Source: an uncultured Alphaproteobacteria bacterium
GTDB taxonomy: Bacteria > Pseudomonadota > Alphaproteobacteria > Rs-D84
DNA: 64,000 nucleotides
Assembly: GCA_944389345.1 (NCBI GenBank)
Contig: CALXMA010000001.1
Coordinates: 1,623-65,622, forward strand
Direction of reading: 5' to 3'
Shown in pieces: positions 5,232-63,427 of this stretch. Under the pieces are notes generated by a model. That model was not told the DNA's origin. It ran no database searches and saw only the letters and a list, made by a program, of their open reading frames with translations. How positions within the stretch are numbered: the first letter of the stretch is position 1; each line of letters opens with the position of its first letter. Position numbers and translations under genes: made by a program.

Positions 5232-5482
5232 TATAATATTACCTGTCGACGGGTGTTCCGTTGATGGGGTGTGGAAACCTCGGTGATAGCGTCGTGGTAT
5301 TGATTATGGCGCGTGGATGCGCTGTTTTTATTATTGCGATGAAAAGTAAACTCCTGATTTTTGCGTCAGGAGGGTCGCGAAATATCAAATACGCGACACA
5401 ATTCTATCAATTGTTTCCAACCTCCTGACCACCAAGTAAAACTGGTGGTTTTTTCATTACGAAAAAATCAGGAGTACGAACA
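5232..5482 (+). promoter_or_regulatory. structured 5' leader copy 1 (promoter -10, multi-helix RNA, intrinsic terminator 5428-5454, RBS): candidate riboswitch/attenuator
   Basis: Alignable block by block with 42790-43016 and 53175-53379; P1 5246-5264, AGCGTCG 5288-5294, A/B/C elements 5351-5357/5365-5373/5421-5429, CAATTCT-N4-ATTGTT 5399-5415. Confidence 0.7.
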
Positions 5483-6031
5483 ATGAAAACAAAATTTATA
5501 TTACCCATCGGGGTATTTGCGATACTAACCACAATGCCCAACATCGCCCACGCATTGTCCAGCAGTATGACCCATTGCATGGAAACAGGCTTGGGACAGG
5601 CGAATTGCACCTGTGCCGGTGGAACCAACGCTGGTGCAAAGTGCTCAGTAGATTCGCAATGTCCCGGCAGTATATGCTCCAACAGTGGTGGCGGTATAAC
5701 GCCGCCCACGCCCACCATTTGCACCCCAGCAACCTGCAAACCGACCACAACCGGTTGGGGTTCATGCGGTGTTGGCGCCAATTCGTATGTCGAATGCGAA
5801 GCAACCGCCGAATGCAGGGGCAGTTTGTGTGTACGTGGCCAAAATTACCGTTGTGTTGCCGGCGCCTATGGCAACCCCAGCGCATCAAACAAAACCGCCT
5901 GTGCACCATGCCCATCGCCCGGAACATCGGCCGCGGGTTCGACCAGTCAATCTGATTGTTATATCCCGGCCGGAACCACCGGTTCGGACAGTACGGGCAC
6001 GTATAAATATACGGCCAATTGTTATTACTGA
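5483..6031 (+). CDS. secreted Cys-rich protein, family member 1 (ephrin-receptor-like/GCC2_GCC3-type CxxC repeat, conserved C-terminal module)
   Basis: Signal peptide MKTKFILPIGVFAILTTMPNIAHA; 17 Cys in the mature part; C-terminus CAPCPSPGTSAAGSTSQSDCYIPAGTTGSDSTGTYKYTANCYY shared with the 35294 and 43295 genes. Confidence 0.8.
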   Translation: MKTKFILPIGVFAILTTMPNIAHALSSSMTHCMETGLGQANCTCAGGTNAGAKCSVDSQCPGSICSNSGGGITPPTPTICTPATCKPTTTGWGSCGVGANSYVECEATAECRGSLCVRGQNYRCVAGAYGNPSASNKTACAPCPSPGTSAAGSTSQSDCYIPAGTTGSDSTGTYKYTANCYY

Positions 6032-10300: not shown

Positions 10301-10960
10301 ATGGTTGATATTATGATTTCTGGGATTGTTGGTAAATTGCATGCGGTGTATCATAAATCAGATGTGCCGGCGGCCCCGTTGGCCGTGGTGTTGTCTGGTA
10401 ATCCGCGACAAAAGTATCACATGAATGATCGTGTGTCTTATGCCATGTTTCGGGCGTTTATGGATATTGGTTTTTCCGTCGTACGATTTAACTATCGTGG
10501 TGTGAACTATTCCGAAGGCGCATTGGGAACACCAGAAGATAATATCAAAGATATTGTGACGGTTATGGACTGGATTCAAAACAGAAATGAAGACAGTAAT
10601 AAGATATGGTTGGCGGGTAATCAATTGGGCGCGTGGTATGTATTACAGGTTATGATGCGTCGGCCAGAGGTGTCCGGGTTTGCGTTGGTGTCGCCAGATG
10701 CATCGGTGTCTAATTTTTCGTTCTTGTCGCCACGACCAAATCGTGGTCTGTTGTTACAGGGCGCGGCAGAATCCGAAGAAGCCAAGGCGTTCGCAACACA
10801 TTTAACCCAGATTTTGAAAAAACAGGCGCAAATAGATTTGGAAACAATACGGATTAAAAATGCCGATGACCATTATTCTCATCCGGCGGAATTGCGCCAA
10901 ATGTATAATGACTTAAAGGCCTATGTCGGGCGTGAAAACGAAGAAAACAAATTGTTGTAA
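10301..10960 (+). CDS. alpha/beta-hydrolase-fold protein (COG2945-like) with the nucleophile elbow substituted
   Basis: AGGAAGG then ATG at 10301; overall pattern VRFNYRGV..S.G...D...DW....WLAG-x-x-x-GAW, but GNQLG replaces GFSFG. Confidence 0.65.
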   Translation: MVDIMISGIVGKLHAVYHKSDVPAAPLAVVLSGNPRQKYHMNDRVSYAMFRAFMDIGFSVVRFNYRGVNYSEGALGTPEDNIKDIVTVMDWIQNRNEDSNKIWLAGNQLGAWYVLQVMMRRPEVSGFALVSPDASVSNFSFLSPRPNRGLLLQGAAESEEAKAFATHLTQILKKQAQIDLETIRIKNADDHYSHPAELRQMYNDLKAYVGRENEENKLL

Positions 10961-34973: not shown

Positions 34974-35293
34974 TTGCTTTTCTTGTGGTACTAAATTATA
35001 CTGTTTTGTGAATCCAAATGGATATTGGGTTCGGGGTCGTCAAAAAGCCCTTAATCAAAGCAATGTCGCAAGGCATTGAATACTATCCGCTGTACGAAAA
35101 TACGTGGCGCGGTTTGCGCCGTTTGTGTTTTTGTATACCCCGATTTATAGGTCGGGGGGCCGTCGGTTATACCACAGGATTTTATCCAAAGACCGATGGG
35201 ATCATTTCTTTGATTATGATTTTTTGACCTCCCCGGCCGCCAATATTTTGTTGGCGGTTTTTGCTTTTAACAAAAATGCAAAGGGGGAAAATA
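34974..35293 (+). promoter_or_regulatory. divergent copy of the structured leader (promoter TTGCTT-N17-TATACT, helices, terminator 35237-35262, RBS)
   Basis: Same architecture as copy 1: hairpin ggcgc-ggttt-gcgcc (35106-35120), A ccccga 35138-35143, B tcgggggg 35152-35159, C cctcccc 35228-35234, terminator ccgccaa/ttggcgg plus T-run. Confidence 0.5.
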
Positions 35294-35851
35294 ATGAAAA
35301 TCAAAATCAGCGCACTGGCGTTGTTGGTGATTGCAACAATGCCAGATGTCGCACTGGGCAGGTGTGCTCCAATATATTTGCTACCTGGCGAAACCTGTGT
35401 AAGTGCCGGCGGTGTTATATGCGGGGACGGTTCGTGTTATAAGTGTTGCGATGCGGGTAACGAACCGGGTTTGCCAATTTGTGGTACTGGGGTGTATACT
35501 ACAACCACGGAAAGTTTTTCTGATTACAAAGGCAGTGGCACAAAAACGTATAGAAAATATAAAATTGAATGTAGGTGCCCAGACGGCAGTATATCAAAAT
35601 GTTGGCAAAGCACCACATATACATCATGCAATGCCGGGTATTATAAAAGTGGCGGATCGTGTAATGCGTGTCAAAAAGGAACGTATAAATCGTCCGCCGG
35701 GACCGCGACATCTTGTACGTCGTGCACGTCGCCCGGCACGACCGCGTCAACCGGTTCAACCAGTTCATCGGACTGTTATATTCCGTCGGGGACAACCGGT
35801 TCAGACAGCACAGGCACGTATAAATATACGTCAAATTGTTATTGGAAATAA
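35294..35851 (+). CDS. secreted Cys-rich protein, family member 2
   Basis: Signal peptide MKIKISALALLVIATMPDVALG; C..C..G.Y repeats; C-terminus CTSCTSPGTTASTGSTSSSDCYIPSGTTGSDSTGTYKYTSNCYWK. Confidence 0.8.
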   Translation: MKIKISALALLVIATMPDVALGRCAPIYLLPGETCVSAGGVICGDGSCYKCCDAGNEPGLPICGTGVYTTTTESFSDYKGSGTKTYRKYKIECRCPDGSISKCWQSTTYTSCNAGYYKSGGSCNACQKGTYKSSAGTATSCTSCTSPGTTASTGSTSSSDCYIPSGTTGSDSTGTYKYTSNCYWK

Positions 35852-40829: not shown

Positions 40830-42755
40830 ATGGATTTCGGACAATTTTACATAATTTTGGTTTCGGTACTGGGCGGTTTGTTGGTGATTGCGTTGGGGGT
40901 ATTGTTTTTCGTTTCACGTCGGTCCCAAAAAGTTATGCAATCTGTGTTGGAAATTATGACCAGACCAGAACGCGCCCGTGTCCAGGACGCCGTACGCGTA
41001 TTGAATTCTATTTTGGCCGATGAAATTATAAAACTGGAATCCAGTTTCCAGGTAATTCGTGATGAACTGAATGGACAGATTGCCGTTGCCAAAGAATTAA
41101 ATCAGCAATTGGCCGAACAAAATAACCGATTGGTCGAAACGGCAGACGATGCCACAAAAAAGATTGCGGTGATGGCGCAACGATTGGATAATACGGTTGG
41201 CGATTTGACCGGCGTCGTGCAATCTGGGGGGTGGCAAGACATCGGCGTTATAACCGAAAGATTTAGTACAACAGTCAACGAGTTGTTGGCAAAAATTGAT
41301 ACAACGTCCCAAGAAACAACCGAACGCGTCGCCACGATACAGAATAATATAGATCAATGGATTTTGGCCGGCGATACATTGAATCAAAAGTTAACATCGG
41401 ACTTTGATTCCAGCGTTGAACAAATGAAAAATTTGAATACGGAATGCGAATCTATGCAACAGAAACTGGAAAGTCTGTCGACGTCTGTGGCAAATGGTTT
41501 TGAAAATGTTAAAACATCTGCACAAAATTATGAAGACGTAATGGACAATACCAACAAGGCGTTGGACGAACATTTGGTCAAAATGGATACGTTTGGAAAA
41601 CAGGCCAAGAAATCTTTGACCGGACAAATGAATACACTGGTCAATACGGCGAACGTTGTTGCCGGCCAGGTTCGGTTGTCTGAAACGTCCATAGATGCCC
41701 AGGTACGTAAATTAACCGGGGTTGTTGATACATTAAGTGCGACCGCCACAAATACGGAAAATTCTGTGCGCAGTGTGTCCAAAGAATTAAATGACCTGTC
41801 TAATTTCTTTGATAAAAACATCAAGGAATTTTCGTCTGATGTTGTCGGTGAATTAAAGACTGTGTCGGGTGTTGCGAATTCTACGTTGGAAAACACCAGA
41901 AGTGCCGCGAATGCGTTTTCTGAATCGGTCAAGGCAATGGCAACCGGCGTGCGCGAAACGTTAATAGAAATGAATACCGCGCATACACAATTGTCGGGCC
42001 AGTCGGCCAATCTGATAAAAATGTCCGCAGAAACAACCGCACAGTTGCAACCGTTGTCCGAATTAATTGAAAAATACTATTCTGCATTGCCGGGATTGGC
42101 GCGCGATTCCGTATCAACCGGTGATAATTTGCAAAAAATTGTGTCGGGGTTGAATGAAAAAATTGCGCTGATGAACCAGACCGTTGCGGATTCTACGACA
42201 ACCATCGCGGAATCGGCCGTAAAATTAGAAGATTTGGCCGGCCAATCACGTCAACAAATGATAGATTTGATGTCTGATTATACCAAGGCTGTGAACACCA
42301 TGCAGACATTGAACAAGCAAATGATGGTCGCACGCGCAACCGCACCAATGGACGCAATCAGTACCGCCCCAACCCCAATGTATGGCCGTGTCAGCAGTCA
42401 AGATTTCTTGAAACAAAGTGAACGGTTGTTCGAAAAAATGCACGAACAAACATTGGATTTGACGCGTTCCGCGGGCGCGGACATTCCCGATGTCGTTTGG
42501 AAAAAATATCATGCGGGGGATAAAGCCGTGTTTTCTAAATGGTTTGCCAAGGTAATTGGGGCCGCCGATAAAAAGCAAATTCGTGAAATGTTAAAATCTG
42601 ATACGGTGTTCCATTCCCAGGCAACGCAATTCGTACGCAGTTTTGATAAAATATTGGCGTCCGCAAAACAGGCCGACGGCACGGATAAACTGGCCAATAC
42701 ACTGTTAAAGACCGACCTGGGACAGATTTATGTCGCATTAAAGGGACACGCGTAA
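40830..42755 (+). CDS. membrane-anchored long coiled-coil protein
   Basis: GGGGGAG RBS; TM ILVSVLGGLLVIALGVLFFV; about 450 aa of heptad-like Q/E/L/T-rich sequence; globular C-terminus (DVVWKKYHAGDKAVFSKWFAK). Confidence 0.7.
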   Translation: MDFGQFYIILVSVLGGLLVIALGVLFFVSRRSQKVMQSVLEIMTRPERARVQDAVRVLNSILADEIIKLESSFQVIRDELNGQIAVAKELNQQLAEQNNRLVETADDATKKIAVMAQRLDNTVGDLTGVVQSGGWQDIGVITERFSTTVNELLAKIDTTSQETTERVATIQNNIDQWILAGDTLNQKLTSDFDSSVEQMKNLNTECESMQQKLESLSTSVANGFENVKTSAQNYEDVMDNTNKALDEHLVKMDTFGKQAKKSLTGQMNTLVNTANVVAGQVRLSETSIDAQVRKLTGVVDTLSATATNTENSVRSVSKELNDLSNFFDKNIKEFSSDVVGELKTVSGVANSTLENTRSAANAFSESVKAMATGVRETLIEMNTAHTQLSGQSANLIKMSAETTAQLQPLSELIEKYYSALPGLARDSVSTGDNLQKIVSGLNEKIALMNQTVADSTTTIAESAVKLEDLAGQSRQQMIDLMSDYTKAVNTMQTLNKQMMVARATAPMDAISTAPTPMYGRVSSQDFLKQSERLFEKMHEQTLDLTRSAGADIPDVVWKKYHAGDKAVFSKWFAKVIGAADKKQIREMLKSDTVFHSQATQFVRSFDKILASAKQADGTDKLANTLLKTDLGQIYVALKGHA

Positions 42756-42789
42756 AAAATAACCGCTTGTATTCGCGGGGTATGTTAGA

Positions 42790-43016
42790 TATAATTTCGT
42801 TGTTGACGGGTGTTCCGTCAATGAGGCCTCAAGAACCTCTGCCTTAGCGTCGGCGTAATCTTTGCGCAGACGATAAACATGCTCCTGGACTTAATGGTTC
42901 AGGAGGAGTTGCAAAATACCCAATATGCGACGCAATTCTAAGGATTGTTCTTGACCTCCTGAACCACCACTATGTTGCGGTGGTTTTTTTTACAAAAAAC
43001 TCAGGAGAAAGAACTT
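42790..43016 (+). promoter_or_regulatory. structured 5' leader copy 2 (TATAAT 42790-42795, helices, terminator 42962-42991, RBS 43001-43007)
   Basis: P1 42803-42821, AGCGTCG 42846-42852, A 42882-42887, B 42896-42906, hairpin 42908-42931, CAATTCT-N4-ATTGTT 42933-42949, C 42955-42965. Confidence 0.7.
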
Positions 43017-43280
43017 ATGAAAAAACTTTGTTTGATTTGCGGAATCGCACTGTATTCCGCCAACGCGGGGGCCGCGTGTACAATCACAGACCATCCCGCA
43101 TCATGTGTCCAACAACCAGAATCTTGCAGTGGCGGATACTGTAAAACTGCGTATACGTATTCGGCACCACACAGAACATGCTCGTGCCCGATGAACTATT
43201 GTTGTTCGTGCGAAGAACAGGCAGAGCCCACATGTCGTTGTCCCACAACGGCCGGGGGTCGACCCTGTCCTGTGTGTTAA
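43017..43280 (+). CDS. small secreted protein, extremely Cys-rich (87 aa)
   Basis: Signal peptide MKKLCLICGIALYSANAGA; 13 Cys in the 68-aa mature part, including CSCPMNYCCSCEE and CRCP..CPVC; RBS TCAGGAG. Confidence 0.65.
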   Translation: MKKLCLICGIALYSANAGAACTITDHPASCVQQPESCSGGYCKTAYTYSAPHRTCSCPMNYCCSCEEQAEPTCRCPTTAGGRPCPVC

Positions 43281-43294
43281 AGGGGGGGGCGAAT

Positions 43295-43684
43295 ATGAAT
43301 ATGCATAAATCTGTGTTGGCCACCATGGTCATGGTGGCGGTGTTTGCCGTGGATTCTGTGTTCGCGGCATGTAATCCCGTCGGTACCAGTTGCAGTTCGT
43401 GCACAACGTATCGGTGTAATTCTGGGTATTATGGAACGGCGCGCAGTGCGTCCAGCGGATGTACAAAATGTCCGTCTAATGCGACGTGTGCCGGTGGCAA
43501 CGGGTCAACATTCGTTTGCGCCAAGGGATACTATAAAAGTGGCAGTTCTTGTGCCGATTGCCCGAATAACGGGACAACGTCCAGCACGGGCGCAACATCG
43601 ATATCCAGGTGCTATATCCCCAGCGGAACCACAGGGTCAGATTCCACAGGTACGTTCAAGTATGTTGGAAATTGTTATTACTGA
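43295..43684 (+). CDS. secreted Cys-rich protein, family member 3
   Basis: AGGGGGGG RBS; signal peptide MNMHKSVLATMVMVAVFAVDSVFA; C-terminus CADCPNNGTTSSTGATSISRCYIPSGTTGSDSTGTFKYVGNCYY. Confidence 0.8.
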   Translation: MNMHKSVLATMVMVAVFAVDSVFAACNPVGTSCSSCTTYRCNSGYYGTARSASSGCTKCPSNATCAGGNGSTFVCAKGYYKSGSSCADCPNNGTTSSTGATSISRCYIPSGTTGSDSTGTFKYVGNCYY

Positions 43685-44497: not shown

Positions 44498-46573
44498 TTA
44501 ATCTTCCAAGAAACTGCGCAGTTTGCGTGCACGTGTTGGGTGCTTTAATTTATTCAACGCCTTTTGTTCTATTTGGCGGATACGTTCACGTGTCACGCCG
44601 ATGTATGCACCAACTTCTTCCAGGGTACTGGTGGTGTTCGTGCTCATACCAAAGCGCTGGCGCAGGACAGTTTCCTCTTTGGGATCCAATTCCGACAAAA
44701 TTTGTGTCACAATTTTACGCAGGTTCTTTTGCGCGGCGGACACAAATGGATTTTTGGCGGTTTCGTCCGCGATGATTTCGATACGACTGCTGTCGTCTTC
44801 GGTGCCGACGGGGGCCTCTAATGAAATTGGTTTCAGGTTAACCTTCATGGCCTTGTGTATTTTATCCACAGGCAGATAGATTATCTTGGACAATTCTTCG
44901 GCGGTTGGTTGACGTCCGTATTTATGCATAAACTGGCGCGATGCACGTTGAATCTTGTGAATGTTGTCTATCATGTGCACAGGAATTCGAATGGTGCGTG
45001 CCTGGTCCGCGATACTGCGCGATATGCCCTGTTGTATCCAGTTAGTGGCATACGTGGAAAATTTATTCCCCAGACGATAGTCAAATTTATCCACCGCCTT
45101 CATCAATCCGATATTACCGTCCTGGACCAGGTCAGAAAAATCCAACCCCAGGCCACGATTACTGGATTTTTTTGCAAATTTAATTACCAGACGTAAATTC
45201 GCCTCTATCATTTCGCGTTTTGCACGGGCGGCCTCGGTCTGGCCACGGCGCACCAGTTCAACAACCTTTTTATATTCGCCGGTGGGCTGGCCCGTTTCTT
45301 GGGCGATTGCGGTAATATCATCTTGGATTTTCAAGATGTCTTGTTCGTGTTTCTTGGCGAAATTTACCCACACTGGATTTTTGTGCTTCATCAGTTTCTT
45401 TACCCAGTTGCGGTTGATTTCGTTGCCAACATATTCGGCCAAGAAATCTTCGCGTTTAATCTTGTTCGCCAATGCCAGACGTAATAATTTACCTTCCAGC
45501 CCCATTAACAACTGGTCGCGCTTGGTCAATTGTTCCAAGATTTCTGCGATACGATCGTCGTTCAGGCGAATCTTGCTGACATGTTCGAATAATTCCAAAC
45601 GCATTTTGACGTATTTCTTTTCCAGGGCTTCGTCTGGTTTGGATGAAGACAACAGATTTTCCAGACGTTTGGCCTGTAATTTTTGCATACTGTTAAATAT
45701 GCGTTTAATTTTGCCGAACAGTTCCGTTATCATTGGCATCAGGGCCTCTTCCATTACAGGAATTGGAACACCGGATGTTCCACGCGGACTGTCTTCTTTT
45801 TTGATGCCGTCGTCGTCATCGTCTTCGTCGTCTTCGTCATCGCTGATGGTGGATTCTTCTAAATCGTCCAAATCATCGTCGTCCAATTCGTCTACGTGTT
45901 CAACACCCTTGGATTTCAGGGCCTCGGATAATGCGGCCAATGATTTTTGTTCAGATTCACTGGAATACATTACTTCCAAATTAACGATATAACGCAATCT
46001 GATGTCGTCATTCAGCAATTGTTGATACCAATCCAGCATTGCCTTGATTGTCATCGGACTTTCGCACAAACCATACACCATCAGGCGTGATGCGGCCTCG
46101 ATACGTTGGGCAATTGCGACCTCGCCCGCGGCGGTTAATAATTGCACCGTGCCGATTTGTTTCAAATACGATTGCACGGAATCTTGGACACCCAGTACCA
46201 AGTTGCCCGTCTGACTGCGTTCTAATTGTTTGGCATAATGTTCATAATCTTCGTCATTGACGTCAACCTGTTCCGCGTCGGCGTTCAACAAATTACGTGT
46301 TTTATCCAACGATTCTTCGTTGTCGTCGTCATAGTATTTTTCCAGATTTTGTGAAAAACTGTCTGTCTCTAAGACTTCCAGACCCAAATCTTGTTGAAAG
46401 AAATCCAGTACTTCGTCTTGTTCTTCTGATGGAACCTCGTCCGCTTCGGTTGCGGAATCGAAATCGATGCGCGATAAATAACCAACCTCTATGGCAGAGG
46501 TTGCAAGTTTTTGTAAATTTTCTGGCAAAGAATCAATCAGTAATTTTGTTGCTTCGTCCAATTTTTTAGCCAT
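44498..46573 (-). CDS. rpoD: RNA polymerase sigma factor RpoD (sigma70)
   Basis: Region 2 [30 protein letters not shown]; region 4 [20 protein letters not shown]; acidic insert [12 protein letters not shown]. Confidence 0.98.
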
Positions 46574-53174: not shown

Positions 53175-53379
53175 TATAGTGATAACGATATGACGAGTTG
53201 TCATATCGGGGCTTCACAACCCTTTAACCAGCGTCGGTGACGACGATAAATATCCCCAATCTGTAATGGTTGGAGTGCGGTTAATATATTGAATACCCGC
53301 GCAATTCTGGTTAATTGTTGTGAAACTCCAACTACCTAGAATTTGTTGGTGGTTTTGTTTTTAACAAAAAGGGGCTTTT
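53175..53379 (+). promoter_or_regulatory. structured 5' leader copy 3 (TATAGT 53175-53180, helices, weak terminator, RBS) upstream of an outer-membrane protein gene
   Basis: P1 53186-53208 (loop GAGTT), AGCGTCG 53230-53236, B 53268-53276, CAATTCT-N5-ATTGTT 53302-53319, C 53325-53333, hairpin ccaac/gttgg plus T-run. Confidence 0.65.
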
Positions 53380-54048
53380 ATGAACAAAGCAATATTAACT
53401 GGTATATGTGCACTGGGACTGGTTGGAACGGCATGGGCAGAAACCGCGCCAGCATCGGAATTACCAATAAAGGTGTTCGTTGGTGCAAATCTGGCAATGA
53501 CAATGCCAGTATGGTCGAACGATGTAAATGACGTAATGGATCAAATAAGCACAGAATTACCGGGATTAAATTTAGGATTAGGGGGCGAAGCCGGTATAAA
53601 AATTGGTGCGATCGACAAAATATATAATTTTGGATTAAGTGTTGCGTATGATTATATGTTTGATTCTGCCGCAGAGATTGATTATCCATATGATCAATTG
53701 ATATACGAAATAAGCAATGGCTTTTCGGCCATCAGCGTTTTTTTTGATAATTATATAAGATTTGCTGACAACGCCGGCAAACGTAGCGATTTGGTCTTAG
53801 GTATCGGTTATACAAATGGTACAGAACGCATGCAAATGACGCCCGAGCAATTGGGATATGCATATGGATTGAATACAATAGATGTTGATGACACAGGATC
53901 TTTTGTTGGGTTAAAAATTGGATACTTGCAACAAATTACATCAAATCTAGATTTTTCTGCCATGTTACGTGTATTGATTCCGACAGGTAACGGAGGCGAT
54001 GTCGATTCTATATTTAATCTGAGTGCCGGAATTAGATATAATTTCTAA
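53380..54048 (+). CDS. outer-membrane beta-barrel protein (OmpA-like barrel/OmpW-size)
   Basis: Signal peptide MNKAILTGICALGLVGTAWA; alternating amphipathic strands; C-terminal GIRYNF ending in Phe. Confidence 0.65.
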   Translation: MNKAILTGICALGLVGTAWAETAPASELPIKVFVGANLAMTMPVWSNDVNDVMDQISTELPGLNLGLGGEAGIKIGAIDKIYNFGLSVAYDYMFDSAAEIDYPYDQLIYEISNGFSAISVFFDNYIRFADNAGKRSDLVLGIGYTNGTERMQMTPEQLGYAYGLNTIDVDDTGSFVGLKIGYLQQITSNLDFSAMLRVLIPTGNGGDVDSIFNLSAGIRYNF

Positions 54049-57810: not shown

Positions 57811-58617
57811 ATGTCAGACGTTTTATATCATTTTTCGGCGATACGCAGTGTTATTCCGTATGCGTTCGATATCACACAACCCAAAATCCCCGGCAGTTTG
57901 CGTTCTGTATTTGTCGCGCACAGTGCCGATGGTGATTTTATATGCAAATTTAACCACAGAAATTTGGCGGTAAAAAACGCAATTGTGGCAAATGCTATGT
58001 CCCAATGCGGAATCAAGGTACCGAATATCAGCGTTCATAACTATAAAGGCAAATGGTTCGAAGTATATCCGATTATTCCGGGCAAGACACTGTACGAAAA
58101 CATAGGCGCAGGAATGCCCCGCGACCAGGTTGAATCTGTGTATGCAGACATTGTCCGCGCATTCGCAAAAATGGACATCATCAGCCCGAACATATTGGCC
58201 GACGTTAAATGCAAGCATTCTTACCAAGTTGCCAAAATTAATATAACGGATGCCAATAACGCCATATTCGCATTTGTGTTCTCTGGCGCGGTACGATATA
58301 TGAACCAGACGAGTCCAGAAAATCGTGGAATTTACCACTGTGGAATTACGCCAAAGAATATAATATTGGACGAAAACGGCAAATTTTCTGGTCTGGTCGA
58401 TATGGACGAAGTTGCAATCGCAGACAAAAATTACGCGTTCGGGATGATGGCCGCCAAGTATCAACAATTGGGGCACAACCCGGAAAATTTGATGAACCAG
58501 TACGAGACGCAAACCGGAAGAAAGTTAGACAGACAAAAAATCAAAATTATTTCGGATATGACCAATATGGGTAAAGCGATACTGTGGCGCGCCAATCATT
58601 TGATTCGTGGCAGATAG
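57811..58617 (+). CDS. aminoglycoside/choline-kinase-like phosphotransferase fold protein with an atypical catalytic loop
   Basis: FICKF (Lys), YHCGITPKNIILDENGKFSGLVDMDEV aligns with the HGDLxxxNIL...IDxE pattern, but Gly replaces the catalytic Asp. Confidence 0.6.
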   Translation: MSDVLYHFSAIRSVIPYAFDITQPKIPGSLRSVFVAHSADGDFICKFNHRNLAVKNAIVANAMSQCGIKVPNISVHNYKGKWFEVYPIIPGKTLYENIGAGMPRDQVESVYADIVRAFAKMDIISPNILADVKCKHSYQVAKINITDANNAIFAFVFSGAVRYMNQTSPENRGIYHCGITPKNIILDENGKFSGLVDMDEVAIADKNYAFGMMAAKYQQLGHNPENLMNQYETQTGRKLDRQKIKIISDMTNMGKAILWRANHLIRGR

Positions 58618-59087
58618 TAAACAATATTTTTCCTAATATGCGGTCGGCAATCTATATCCATCGCCACTGCCACCGCCAGTATTACAGCCACACAACGCCA
58701 ACACAATTATCAACGTAGTATATCTTTTCTTTTTCTCTCCCCTTTATGGATACCTAATTAAAAAGACCGCCAACAAGAATTGACGGTCGGGGAGTTCGTA
58801 AATCACTATGGCGTTGATTCCGTTGGCCTTTGGATAAAACCTTTTGTATAACCAACAGCTTCCCGACACGCAGTCGAGTGATAATCTAACGATACAATGG
58901 TGTGGAATACTGGATTACGACAACACTGTGCCGGCTATAGCAGAGCTTACGACAGCCCCGAACCCAATTCCCATTGGATTCAACCAGTATTATATCAGGA
59001 ATTTATGTAATTGTAAATAGTGGACATAAATTAAACCACCACCGATGAAACCCAATAAAAATATATACAGCCAGATAAAATCATGTA

Positions 59088-62659: not shown

Positions 62660-62739
62660 CTGTTTTTTCTTTGTTTTTGGTCATTATAACTTAAAAACTT
62701 GCATTTGCCACCATAAATATTATAATTGTTTTGTCGCAA

Positions 62740-63050
62740 TTGCGATGATGATTCTGAACCCGTTGCGGAATAGTCGTTATGGACTGGGGGGCGGTACCCC
62801 ACAGCTCCACCAATAAATTCTTCATGGGGCTGACATAGTTTCGACAGGCGAAATAAAGGCAAATCGGTTGAATCCGACGTGGCGTCGTAAAAAGCCAAAT
62901 AAAAACTGAATGGCGATAGAATCGCTGCGAACGACAACGTTCGCCTTGCAATGGCTGCCTAATTGGCGTTTGGATATAATTGGCGATTGTTGATTGTATC
63001 CGTTTAGCCTTATTGCGGGGTCGCTGGGTACCCGGCAACAGAAACCCAGC
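62740..63050 (+). ncRNA. ssrA: tmRNA (ssrA), circularly permuted two-piece type; outer boundaries approximate
   Basis: Acceptor piece ends ...ggac-tgggg-ggcggta-cccca-cagctccACCA at 62812. The coding piece starts GGGGCTGAcatagTTTCGACagg at 62826. Tag ORF 62927-62962 reads ANDNVRLAMAA*. Confidence 0.8.
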
Positions 63051-63101
63051 GTGATGTTTATAACAAACCGCTGTGAATCAAATAAATAAAAAGGTTAAAA
63101 T

Positions 63102-63332
63102 ATGTTTGGAAAAATCAAAAAAGTATTCTTTACGGGTATGTTTGGGATTTTGTATGTATCGTTTGTTGCACAGATTGTTTATGTCTTGGGATGGGTCCCG
63201 GGGATTGAGGCAAAATTGTCTTGGATGGGCGTGATGTCTTTGGAATGGTTGGTGTTAATCGCGGCACGCTATCTGTCCAAGCGTTCCAGCAACAGTGCAC
63301 AGTACAACGGTTTTAACAATCGTCGTCGTTAA
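63102..63332 (+). CDS. small membrane protein
   Basis: Two hydrophobic helices (FTGMFGILYVSFVAQIVYVLGWV, MGVMSLEWLVLIAARYL); terminator follows. Confidence 0.45.
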   Translation: MFGKIKKVFFTGMFGILYVSFVAQIVYVLGWVPGIEAKLSWMGVMSLEWLVLIAARYLSKRSSNSAQYNGFNNRRR

Positions 63333-63350
63333 TTTTAATCGCCGATTGTT

Positions 63351-63381
63351 TGTCCCCCGTTGAATACGGGGGATTTTTTTA
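63351..63381 (+). terminator. intrinsic terminator
   Basis: stem tcccccgt/acggggga followed by a T-run. Confidence 0.7.
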
Positions 63382-63427
63382 TAGACACTTGAAAATCAGT
63401 AAAAAAGTTCTTATATTAAATGGCGCT

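Follow-up and report, generated by a model that had tools for sequence, protein, structure and literature searches.

Locus and layout of the leader

We examined a window of 64,000 nucleotides (nt) from an uncultured Alphaproteobacteria bacterium (Rs-D84; assembly GCA_944389345.1, contig CALXMA010000001.1, positions 1,623-65,622, forward strand) and, within it, a leader RNA, here called copy 2, which precedes a two-gene unit for secreted, cysteine-rich (Cys-rich) proteins. A sequence-only reading had described this leader as the closest relative of another leader, copy 1, with a TATAAT box, an intrinsic terminator and a ribosome-binding site. When the sequence was re-read, every element on its list was found in place, and a leader RNA with its own promoter, an intrinsic terminator and a Shine-Dalgarno (SD) sequence was supported. 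The features of copy 2, in window coordinates, are as follows.

42767-42795 (+): promoter, with -35 box TTGTAT (42767-42772), a 17-nt spacer and -10 box TATAAT (42790-42795)
42802-42809/42815-42822 (+): hairpin P1, GTTGACGG-GTGTT-CCGTCAAT, at the 5′ end of the RNA
42823-42839 (+): G-tract GAGG (42823-42826), C42827 and the Pa-lower 5′ arm CAAGAAC (42830-42836)
42823-42839 (+): local hairpin P2 (GAGG..CCTC), an alternative to the use of the G-tract and Pa-lower above
42842-42847 (+): Pb 5′ arm CCTTAG, partner of CTAAGG (42938-42943)
42848-42872 (+): hairpin P3, CGTC-GGCGTAATCTTTGCGCA-GACG, at the AGCGTCG box (42846-42852) of the sequence-only reading
42873-42881 (+): A-rich linker
42882-42890 (+): segment A, CTCCTGGAC, with the CTCCTG core at 42882-42887
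42896-42906 (+): segment B, GGTTCAGGAGG, separated from A by a loop
42907-42932 (+): hairpin H1, GTTGCA-AAATACCCAATA-TGCGAC (arms 42908-42913/42926-42931, 12-nt loop), then G42932
42933-42954 (+): CAATT (H2 5′ arm), CTAAGG (Pb 3′ arm), GATTG (H2 3′ arm) and GTTCTTG (Pa-lower 3′ arm)
42955-42965 (+): segment C, CCTCCTGAACC, with B, the 5′ GAGG (Pa-upper) and the SD as possible partners
42962-42991 (+): intrinsic terminator, AACCACC-loop-GGTGGTT (stem 42962-42984) plus T8, its first 3-4 nt common to C
43001-43019 (+): SD TCAGGAG (43001-43007) and start codon ATG (43017)
43017-43684 (+): two-gene unit for secreted, Cys-rich proteins of 87 amino acids (aa; 43017-43280) and 129 aa (43295-43684)

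A terminator scan placed the terminator at 42966-42984. The promoter of copy 2 was missed by a simple promoter scan, its TTGTAT box matching TTGACA at three of six positions; a TTGnnn box and TATAAT stand at a fixed distance in 97 distinct upstream regions of the family described below. Since the -10 box ends ~7 nt before P1, the RNA is expected to begin with P1. Compared with shuffled versions, the leader of copy 2 had a minimum-free-energy z-score of -6.0, and that of copy 1 was also about -6.

A large family of leader RNAs

Copy 1 exists at ~5232-5482 and aligns with copy 2 at 75% column identity, so that the reported relationship of the two stood; its scale did not, as the family has more than 100 members, with five copies in the window. 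Several searches contributed to this set. A protein alignment of proteins with a conserved C-terminal motif (see below) was scanned against a genome collection and led to metagenome-assembled genomes (MAGs) of uncultured gut Alphaproteobacteria, where four complete leaders were found upstream of homologous genes and three loci (L004, L006 and L007) had no leader. A DNA pattern made from invariant leader parts, in which B, ATTGT and C were fixed, retrieved 120 metagenome loci, mostly from human or animal gut; the two pattern scans gave 122 loci (120 metagenome, 2 viral), 27 of which were chance matches without a leader. A covariance model (R1), built after an nhmmer search, yielded 117 matches in 100 sources, 115 of them real. 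Its alignment has 107 distinct rows, two of which are false matches to the terminator only (window 63332-63419 and L090:3180-3262). Nearly all sources are gut metagenomes or alphaproteobacterial MAGs, and several metagenome contigs carry 3-4 copies.

The copies in the window, with their covariance-model scores, are listed below.

5232-5482 (+): copy 1, 241.5 bits (match 5237-5491), upstream of a 182-aa Cys-rich secreted protein (5483-6031)
42794-43024 (+): match to copy 2, 171 bits, upstream of the two-gene Cys-rich unit
35002-35293 (+): copy 3, of a divergent 'CGGGG' subfamily, 36.3 bits, E = 2.6e-10 (match 35002-35300)
53179-53379 (+): copy 4, of a 'GTTGGAG' subfamily, 95.3 bits (match 53179-53391), all helices identifiable by eye
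58722-58989 (-): copy 5, of a 'CGGG' subfamily, 29.3 bits, E = 4.7e-8, upstream of a tiny lipoprotein-like open reading frame (ORF)

The elements of copy 3 are CCCCGA (A), GGTCGGGGGG (B) and CCTCCCCGGCC (C), and it precedes a 185-aa Cys-rich protein (35294-35851). All real family members keep the order promoter, leader, terminator, SD and ATG with a near-constant distance from terminator to ATG; each copy leaves ~25-30 nt between its terminator and the first codon of a gene for a protein with a signal peptide. We have high confidence that this family of leader RNAs, and both conformations described in the following sections, are real.

One full leader (198 bits), followed by a Cys-rich gene, was found at 10352-10599 (-) of L128 (IMGVR_UViG_3300010163_000459). 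This contig is classed as viral by IMG/VR; the gene could be cargo or part of a prophage, or the contig may be misclassified.

The default fold

De novo prediction with RNAalifold on six sequences gave a long-range fold, hereafter fold X, which included helix Pb. In a MAFFT-only alignment of 66 sequences, 96.4% of the cells of fold X were paired and 33 pairs showed double-sided changes; none of 500 shuffles reached the observed values, and slid controls were 37-52% paired. In the covariance-model alignment of the 107 distinct rows, double-sided changes were seen in 52 of 58 pairs, a number equaled by none of 500 shuffles.

Support was spread over the helices. All eight pairs of P1 had double-sided changes (99.2% of cells paired), and seven of them covaried in the MAFFT-only alignment as well. 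Pa-lower, which joins CAAGAAC (42830-42836) to GTTCTTG (42947-42953), covaried at 7/7 pairs and was 99.4% paired, and Pb covaried at 6/6 pairs, with 4-5 pair types each (98.4% paired). Pa-upper, between GAGG (42823-42826) and CCTC (42955-42958), was 96.6% paired with little variation. At the base of P3, whose sequence is largely conserved, all five pairs had double-sided changes in some sequences (96.8% paired); its distal part varies in length, copy 2 having a short form and copy 1 a longer insert of ~50 nt in all. The A:B hairpin was 98.7% paired with covariation at four of six pairs, H1 covaried at all six of its pairs and keeps a loop motif, AAUAU..AAUA, in the main subfamily, and the terminator stem, present in all real members, was 94.3% paired with covariation at 6/7 pairs. 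Comparison of copies 1 and 2 confirmed the compensatory differences that had been described for P1 and H1.

Taken from these alignments, the clamp formed by Pa and Pb encloses P3, the A:B hairpin and H1, and closes a four-way junction. A mutual-information scan added an isolated long-range pair between the base after the G-tract and the base after H1 (C42827:G42932 in copy 2), whose columns are UA in 87 sequences and CG in 12, with no mismatches and across several unrelated lineages. No mutual information was found for kissing of the P1 loop (GUGUU) with the H1 loop (AAUAU), or of the P1 loop with GAGAAC.

These helices change two details of the sequence-only reading. It had drawn CAATTCT-aagg-ATTGTT as a hairpin, which is at best a minor alternative: the supposed loop, CTAAGG (42938-42943), pairs with CCTTAG (42842-42847), and the GTTCTTG that follows it pairs with CAAGAAC (42830-42836), both helices showing very strong covariation. 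Likewise, AGCGTCG is not a free box; it consists of the last Pb pair and the 5′ arm of P3 (CGTC..GACG).

The alternative fold and its probable antiterminator

The second conformation, fold Y, is built on pairing between B and C. The fixed B and C of the search pattern prevent the main subfamily from testing this helix, which the divergent neighboring copies can do. Three subfamilies change A and B together (CUCCUGA/UCAGGAG, CUCCAAC/GUUGGAG and CCCCGAC/GUCGGGG), and the complete sets of A, B and C are

subfamily 1: CUCCUGA / GGUCAGGAGG / CCUCCUGACC
subfamily 2: CUCCAAC / GGUUGGAGG / CCUCCAACC
subfamily 3: CCCCGAC / GGUCGGG(G/A)(A/G)G / CU(U/C)CCCGACC

In the covariance-model alignment, divergent copies included, B:C was 96.7% paired and six of its ten pairs had double changes. 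In addition, copy 2 and its relatives carry an extra U in B (GGU-U-CAGG) and, to match it, an additional purine in C (CCUGA-R-CC). Both insertions are present together in five of six cases, and the inserted form is found in 0 of 79 standard sequences; the longer B and C noted earlier in copy 2 (ggttcaggagg/cctcctgaacc) are therefore a matched insertion common to its orthologues. Because this insertion keeps the terminal GG:CC in register, and this CC forms the first bases of the terminator stem, B:C appears to act as an antiterminator. The pairing reaches 3-4 nt into the terminator stem. The earlier claim that A:B and B:C are mutually exclusive and extend to the terminator thus gained support, both helices covarying across subfamilies.

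Two further helices are compatible with fold Y only. In P2, where the G-tract pairs with CCYS, the pair (46,66) was GC in 56 sequences, GU in 24, AU in 20 and AC in none. H2 (CAAUU/RAUUG) is conserved in sequence, with one pair changing from AU (91 sequences) to UA (5) within one subfamily.

Other parts of the earlier account needed modification. In each of the two leaders the switch hexamer occurs four times, twice as CTCCTG (A and C) and twice as CAGGAG (B and SD). B is indeed a partner of C, to which GAGG (42823-42826) has to be added as another possible one. The restriction of CTCCTG and CAGGAG to leaders was considered as evidence of specificity and rejected, because it is a by-product of the lineage-wide depletion of AG/CT (odds ratio 0.44). 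This dinucleotide is extremely depleted in the window and in L002, L010, L011, L030 and L039 (symmetrised odds ratio 0.44; CG 1.42, TA 0.69); the 64 kb lack many AG/CT-rich hexamers, vs 25-36 expected, and GGAGG occurs 8 times, vs 89 expected. The depletion is a trait of the lineage.

Leaders with different A/B/C sets, or in divergent orientation, were observed a few hundred bases to a few kb apart on L106 (242-498 (-) and 569-783 (+)), L018 (4035-4292 (-) and 7318-7555 (+)) and L001 (926-1183 (-) and 2602-2860 (+)), implying that the three flavors co-exist in one genome. On the more specific riboswitch reading discussed below, these flavors (CAGGAG, GUUGGAG and CGGGG) could give rise to sub-regulons that differ in threshold or effector.

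Constraint on the leader was also seen from its surroundings. At the syntenic loci of two other genomes (L130 and L132), the leader has 72% and 58% identity, vs 61-62% and 51-52% for the two genes. The coding regions are thus more diverged than the leader, as had been proposed; the idea of a separate structural constraint on the leader is supported and agrees with this comparison.

Energetics and a model of attenuation

In the terminated RNA, most of 100 distinct members had fold X as their minimum-free-energy fold, and X was better by 10.6 kcal/mol than the best fold forced to hold B:C; in transcripts cut before the 3′ arm of the terminator, X was favored by 5.0 +/- 3.7 kcal/mol. For the full-length mRNA at equilibrium, mean pairing probabilities were 0.90 for A:B, 0.07 for B:C, 0.25 for Pa-upper and 0.42 for C:SD. 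As the predicted equilibrium is strongly in favor of A:B, B:C would need an effector. Mean predicted accessibility of the SD was 0.33 in Y vs 0.51 in the X core.

We propose that the leader is a cis-acting, riboswitch-like, two-state transcription attenuator of a new RNA family, with a probability of roughly 0.6. Transcription would start at the leader's own sigma-70-type promoter, giving an RNA that begins with P1. In the OFF state, which would correspond to fold X, the 5′ strand (GAGG-C-..CAAGAAC....CCTTAG) would clamp the 3′ strand (CTAAGG..GTTCTTG-A-CCTC) to form Pb, Pa-lower and Pa-upper. This clamp would close the four-way junction with P3, A:B and H1, and C42827:G42932 would tie the internal loop of Pa to the junction. 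With B held by A, the anti-antiterminator, and C held by the G-tract, the terminator would form and polymerase would stop ~25 nt before the SD, leaving an RNA of ~190 nt. In transcripts that escape termination, C would tend to pair with the SD, a putative second, translational lock.

In the ON state, fold Y, pairing of B with C over 10-11 base pairs (bp) would take the first 3-4 nt of the terminator stem and the G-tract would refold into P2, so that polymerase could read into the gene or genes for secreted proteins. The change to ON might come about by removal of A from B, or by stabilization of the junction of B:C, H1 and H2. A small ligand, an RNA-binding protein or a small RNA (sRNA) that reads the conserved junction, the H1 loop, or the A-rich linker together with A would be a candidate effector, the Pa/Pb clamp and four-way junction serving as sensor or lock. 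A search for a trans-acting sRNA with a B-like seed, made in 747 kb of sampled flanks of related loci, gave no 8-mers resembling B outside leaders, and its four C-like matches look like coding sequence. The data show the family, its promoter, both sets of pairings and the reach of B:C into the terminator; the direction of the switch (X = OFF, Y = ON), which we hold with moderate confidence, the effector and the translational lock are inferred.

Several observations weigh against this model. The covariance-model alignment was itself fitted to fold X, and Pa-upper is almost without covariation. Support for B:C comes from ~15 divergent copies and the insertion variant, i.e., few independent events; B:C covers only 3-4 of the 7 bp of the terminator, and of 100 folds constrained to Y, 43 still contain a shortened terminator hairpin. 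Segment A, once released in Y, is predicted to cover the SD, a misfit with a simple switch that is ON at both levels. Termination and read-through are deduced from sequence alone. Finally, the regulated genes (secreted Cys-rich, putative outer-membrane and lipoprotein-like) point to no metabolite; this gene context points instead to envelope or secretion biology.

A more specific form of the attenuator model is a new riboswitch class: a ~190-nt four-way-junction aptamer with a long-range clamp that senses a small molecule, plausibly a signaling or envelope-related metabolite, at many loci per genome, and controls a regulon of secreted Cys-rich and envelope proteins in uncultured gut Alphaproteobacteria. 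We regard this version as tentative and, on the whole, rather doubtful.

Other explanations

An alternative that we consider improbable, although the best of those remaining, is that the terminated ~190-nt RNA is itself the functional product, a multi-copy trans-acting sRNA or a protein sponge, with the genes expressed by leak-through or the RNA having dual function. Near-consensus promoters, and fold X plus terminator as the minimum-free-energy fold of most members, suggest that short RNAs should be abundant, and the loops of H1 and P1 are conserved in sequence. The A-rich (ARN-like) linker and the U-tail may also resemble Hfq-binding features. The Brt RNAs of Bartonella provide a precedent with the same architecture (PMC5387305). 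However, the triple covariation of A, B and C and the matched insertion that enters the terminator stem are hard to explain without B:C antitermination, the leader always stands at a constant distance from SD and ATG, and no candidate target or seed was identified. A trans-acting role of the ~190-nt terminated RNA would be compatible with attenuation in cis.

Slightly less probable still is mainly translational control, in which C (or A) masks the SD, the pairing of G-tract and C unmasks it, and the terminator is constitutive and leaky. Here the equilibrium values given above are favorable, C:SD (0.42) exceeding Pa-upper (0.25) in the full-length mRNA; moreover, enforcing the X core leaves the SD more accessible, and the minimum-free-energy fold of copy 2 pairs C with the SD around the terminator hairpin. 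Leaders of the 'CGGGG' type have unusual GGGGA-type SDs that match their own C, as judged by eye in few cases; a count of SD/C covariation had too few cases, with start codons mis-assigned in some divergent copies. What such control leaves unexplained is the 10-11-nt complementarity of B and C, which in the GUUGGAG subfamily extends to bases of C without complementarity to the SD, and the extension of this pairing into the terminator stem.

Ribosome-mediated attenuation by a leader peptide of the trp/his/leu type, in which a ribosome on A would free B for C, shares the logic of three overlapping pairings (A:B, B:C and terminator), and most copies carry an ATG at the 3′ end of P1, with the frame in copy 1 running to a TGA inside C; it was rejected for want of a conserved leader ORF and is effectively refuted, as 27 of the 107 distinct sequences lack this ATG, no SD precedes it, the ORF varies from 3 to >65 codons (8 in copy 2), and the region evolves by compensatory base-pair changes rather than by codon. 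A history of recently duplicated or gene-converted promoter-leader cassettes, or a mobile repeat, with no function at the RNA level, would account for several copies per genome before paralogous genes and for the copy on the viral-classed contig, and is likewise effectively refuted by hundreds of compensatory double changes that keep the helices while the sequence diverges, by leaders before unrelated genes (the putative outer-membrane protein of copy 4 and the lipoprotein-like ORF) and by orthologous leaders at syntenic positions in different genomes.

Regulated genes and genomic context

Nearly every protein encoded downstream of a leader has a signal peptide. Most contain 7-11% cysteine and a C-terminal motif, and a few are not Cys-rich. 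The motif CYIPxGTTGSDSTGTxKYxxNCYY is common to the proteins encoded after copies 1 and 2 and is also present in a third paralogue in the window. In a more general form, C[YF]IPxGTTGSDSTGT[YF]xYxxNC[YW][YW], it was observed on ORFs 5483-6031, 35294-35851 and 43295-43684 and on most downstream proteins of loci L001-L127, where it ends otherwise fast-evolving Cys-rich secreted proteins with Ephrin_rec_like or VSP-like repeats. This motif may be a sorting or anchoring signal. The 129-aa protein of copy 2 matched Pfam Ephrin_rec_like above the cut-off, and a VSP-like match fell below it; its homologues are all annotated as hypothetical proteins, most named sources being Alphaproteobacteria MAGs and one labeled Muribaculaceae. 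In L086, L114, L060 and L062, otherwise identical leaders are followed by a truncated Cys-rich gene, possibly owing to frameshifts, pseudogenes or assembly errors.

Copy 4 precedes a 222-aa protein (53380-54048) that is not Cys-rich and has a signal peptide and the C-terminus ...RYNF, which suggests an outer-membrane protein; NCBIfam gave a weak autotransporter-barrel match alone. After copy 5, the region 58600-58720 (-) has only a tiny ORF with a TTG start (..LIIVLALCGCNTGGGSGDGYRLPTAY) and a lipobox-like LALC motif. This copy may regulate a mini-lipoprotein of ~30 aa, which would be absent from ORF lists.

Copy 2 is syntenic in L130 and L132, where it lies between a gene for a ~640-aa coiled-coil protein and genes for thymidylate kinase and rpoD; its two-gene unit is syntenic in both as well. 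Directly upstream of copy 2 in the window, 40830-42755 (+) encodes a protein of 641 aa that is coiled-coil-like, of low complexity and hydrophobic in one N-terminal segment; it had weak Pfam matches alone (ATG17-like, apolipoprotein) and is syntenic in the same two genomes. A RpoD-like sigma factor of 691 aa with a long, very acidic insert is encoded at 44498-46573 (-). A two-piece (permuted) alphaproteobacterial transfer-messenger RNA (tmRNA) gene was detected at 62695-63052 (+) with 158 bits, which fits an alphaproteobacterial origin of the window.

Comparison with known systems

The present analysis adds a large and well-supported family of structured RNAs, of which more than 100 examples are available; covariation backs each of its two conformations, and it has a tertiary pair. 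To our knowledge, no comparable RNA family has been found in this lineage of uncultured gut Alphaproteobacteria. The leader seems to control the main family of secreted or surface proteins in these organisms, all of which are annotated as hypothetical. Ligand binding would make it a new orphan riboswitch, and one whose regulon is unusual; control by a protein or sRNA would define a new antitermination system.

Searches of Rfam 15 with the whole window at gathering thresholds (cmscan) returned the tmRNA and transfer RNAs alone, and searches at permissive E-values with copies 1 and 2 and 12 other loci gave nothing recurrent on the leaders. sRNA-Xcc1 (RF02221) scored 28.0 bits on copy 1 alone, vs a gathering score of 53, with no match on copy 2 or the 12 other loci; its closing stem and two hairpins align weakly to the three-way junction of B:C, H1 and H2 in copy 1, whereas its genomic context is different. 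T-box leaders gave no match to copies 1 and 2 even at E <= 10, and the genes downstream are for secreted proteins. RNA thermometers (ROSE, fourU) were rejected for lack of an Rfam match and because the element is ~190 nt long, with a four-way junction and an intrinsic terminator before the SD. ANTAR dual hexaloops and the ribonucleic antiterminator (RAT) of BglG/LicT were rejected by inspection, the loops near the terminator having 12 nt (H1) and 5-7 nt (H2) and lacking the AxxGxx motif. Conserved 14-mers of the leader occur in no paper of the literature searched. No match was found in 200 of the 408 supplementary files of a human-microbiome structured-RNA catalogue, in which an unnamed entry is still possible (PMC8040213).

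Closer parallels are architectural. The trp/his/leu/phe attenuators have the same series of exclusive pairings, A:B (1:2), B:C (2:3) and C/terminator (3:4); unlike them, the leader has no conserved peptide and has a long-range clamp and a four-way junction that they lack. The Brt1-9 RNAs of Bartonella are multi-copy, ~200 nt long and highly structured, with a putative terminator/riboswitch region 10-18 nt before the paralogous trp1-9 genes; they precede helix-turn-helix (HTH) regulators, were proposed to be both sRNA and cis switch, and were reported to be specific to the genus, with no similar sequences outside (PMC5387305). The likeness to our family lies in an alphaproteobacterial multi-copy architecture, and the genes downstream differ, HTH regulators in Bartonella vs secreted proteins here.

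Riboswitches with a known ligand offer a further comparison. The general definition of a riboswitch includes a conserved structured domain with covariation, which the leader has (52 of 58 pairs, with agreement of the structure-independent alignment), and mutually exclusive terminator and antiterminator pairings, which it has computationally. It also includes direct binding of a small molecule or ion without protein, and for this the gene context (secreted Cys-rich proteins) suggests no ligand. c-di-GMP-I (GEMM) riboswitches occur in many copies per genome before genes for surface, secreted or membrane proteins. Their analogy to the leader is functional only, as multi-copy elements before surface genes; there is no Rfam match and the architecture is unrelated. 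Terminator-type riboswitches, for example those with four- or five-way-junction aptamers such as SAM-I and lysine, share with the leader a ~190-nt 5′ leader with the terminator directly downstream, strong covariation, a tertiary pair and conserved nucleotides in junction and loops, as well as a junction of several helices, closed by a long-range helix that has its 3′ strand in common with the antiterminator. In contrast to them, the leader regulates secreted Cys-rich and envelope genes rather than metabolic or transport genes, has an extra anti-antiterminator (A) in the junction, and reaches a very high copy number, five in 64 kb. Given the failed Rfam tests and the lack of a leader peptide and of T-box, thermometer, ANTAR or RAT features, the leader is not a member of a described family. 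The leader family is a new class of the terminator-type riboswitch/attenuator kind, outside every described family tested.

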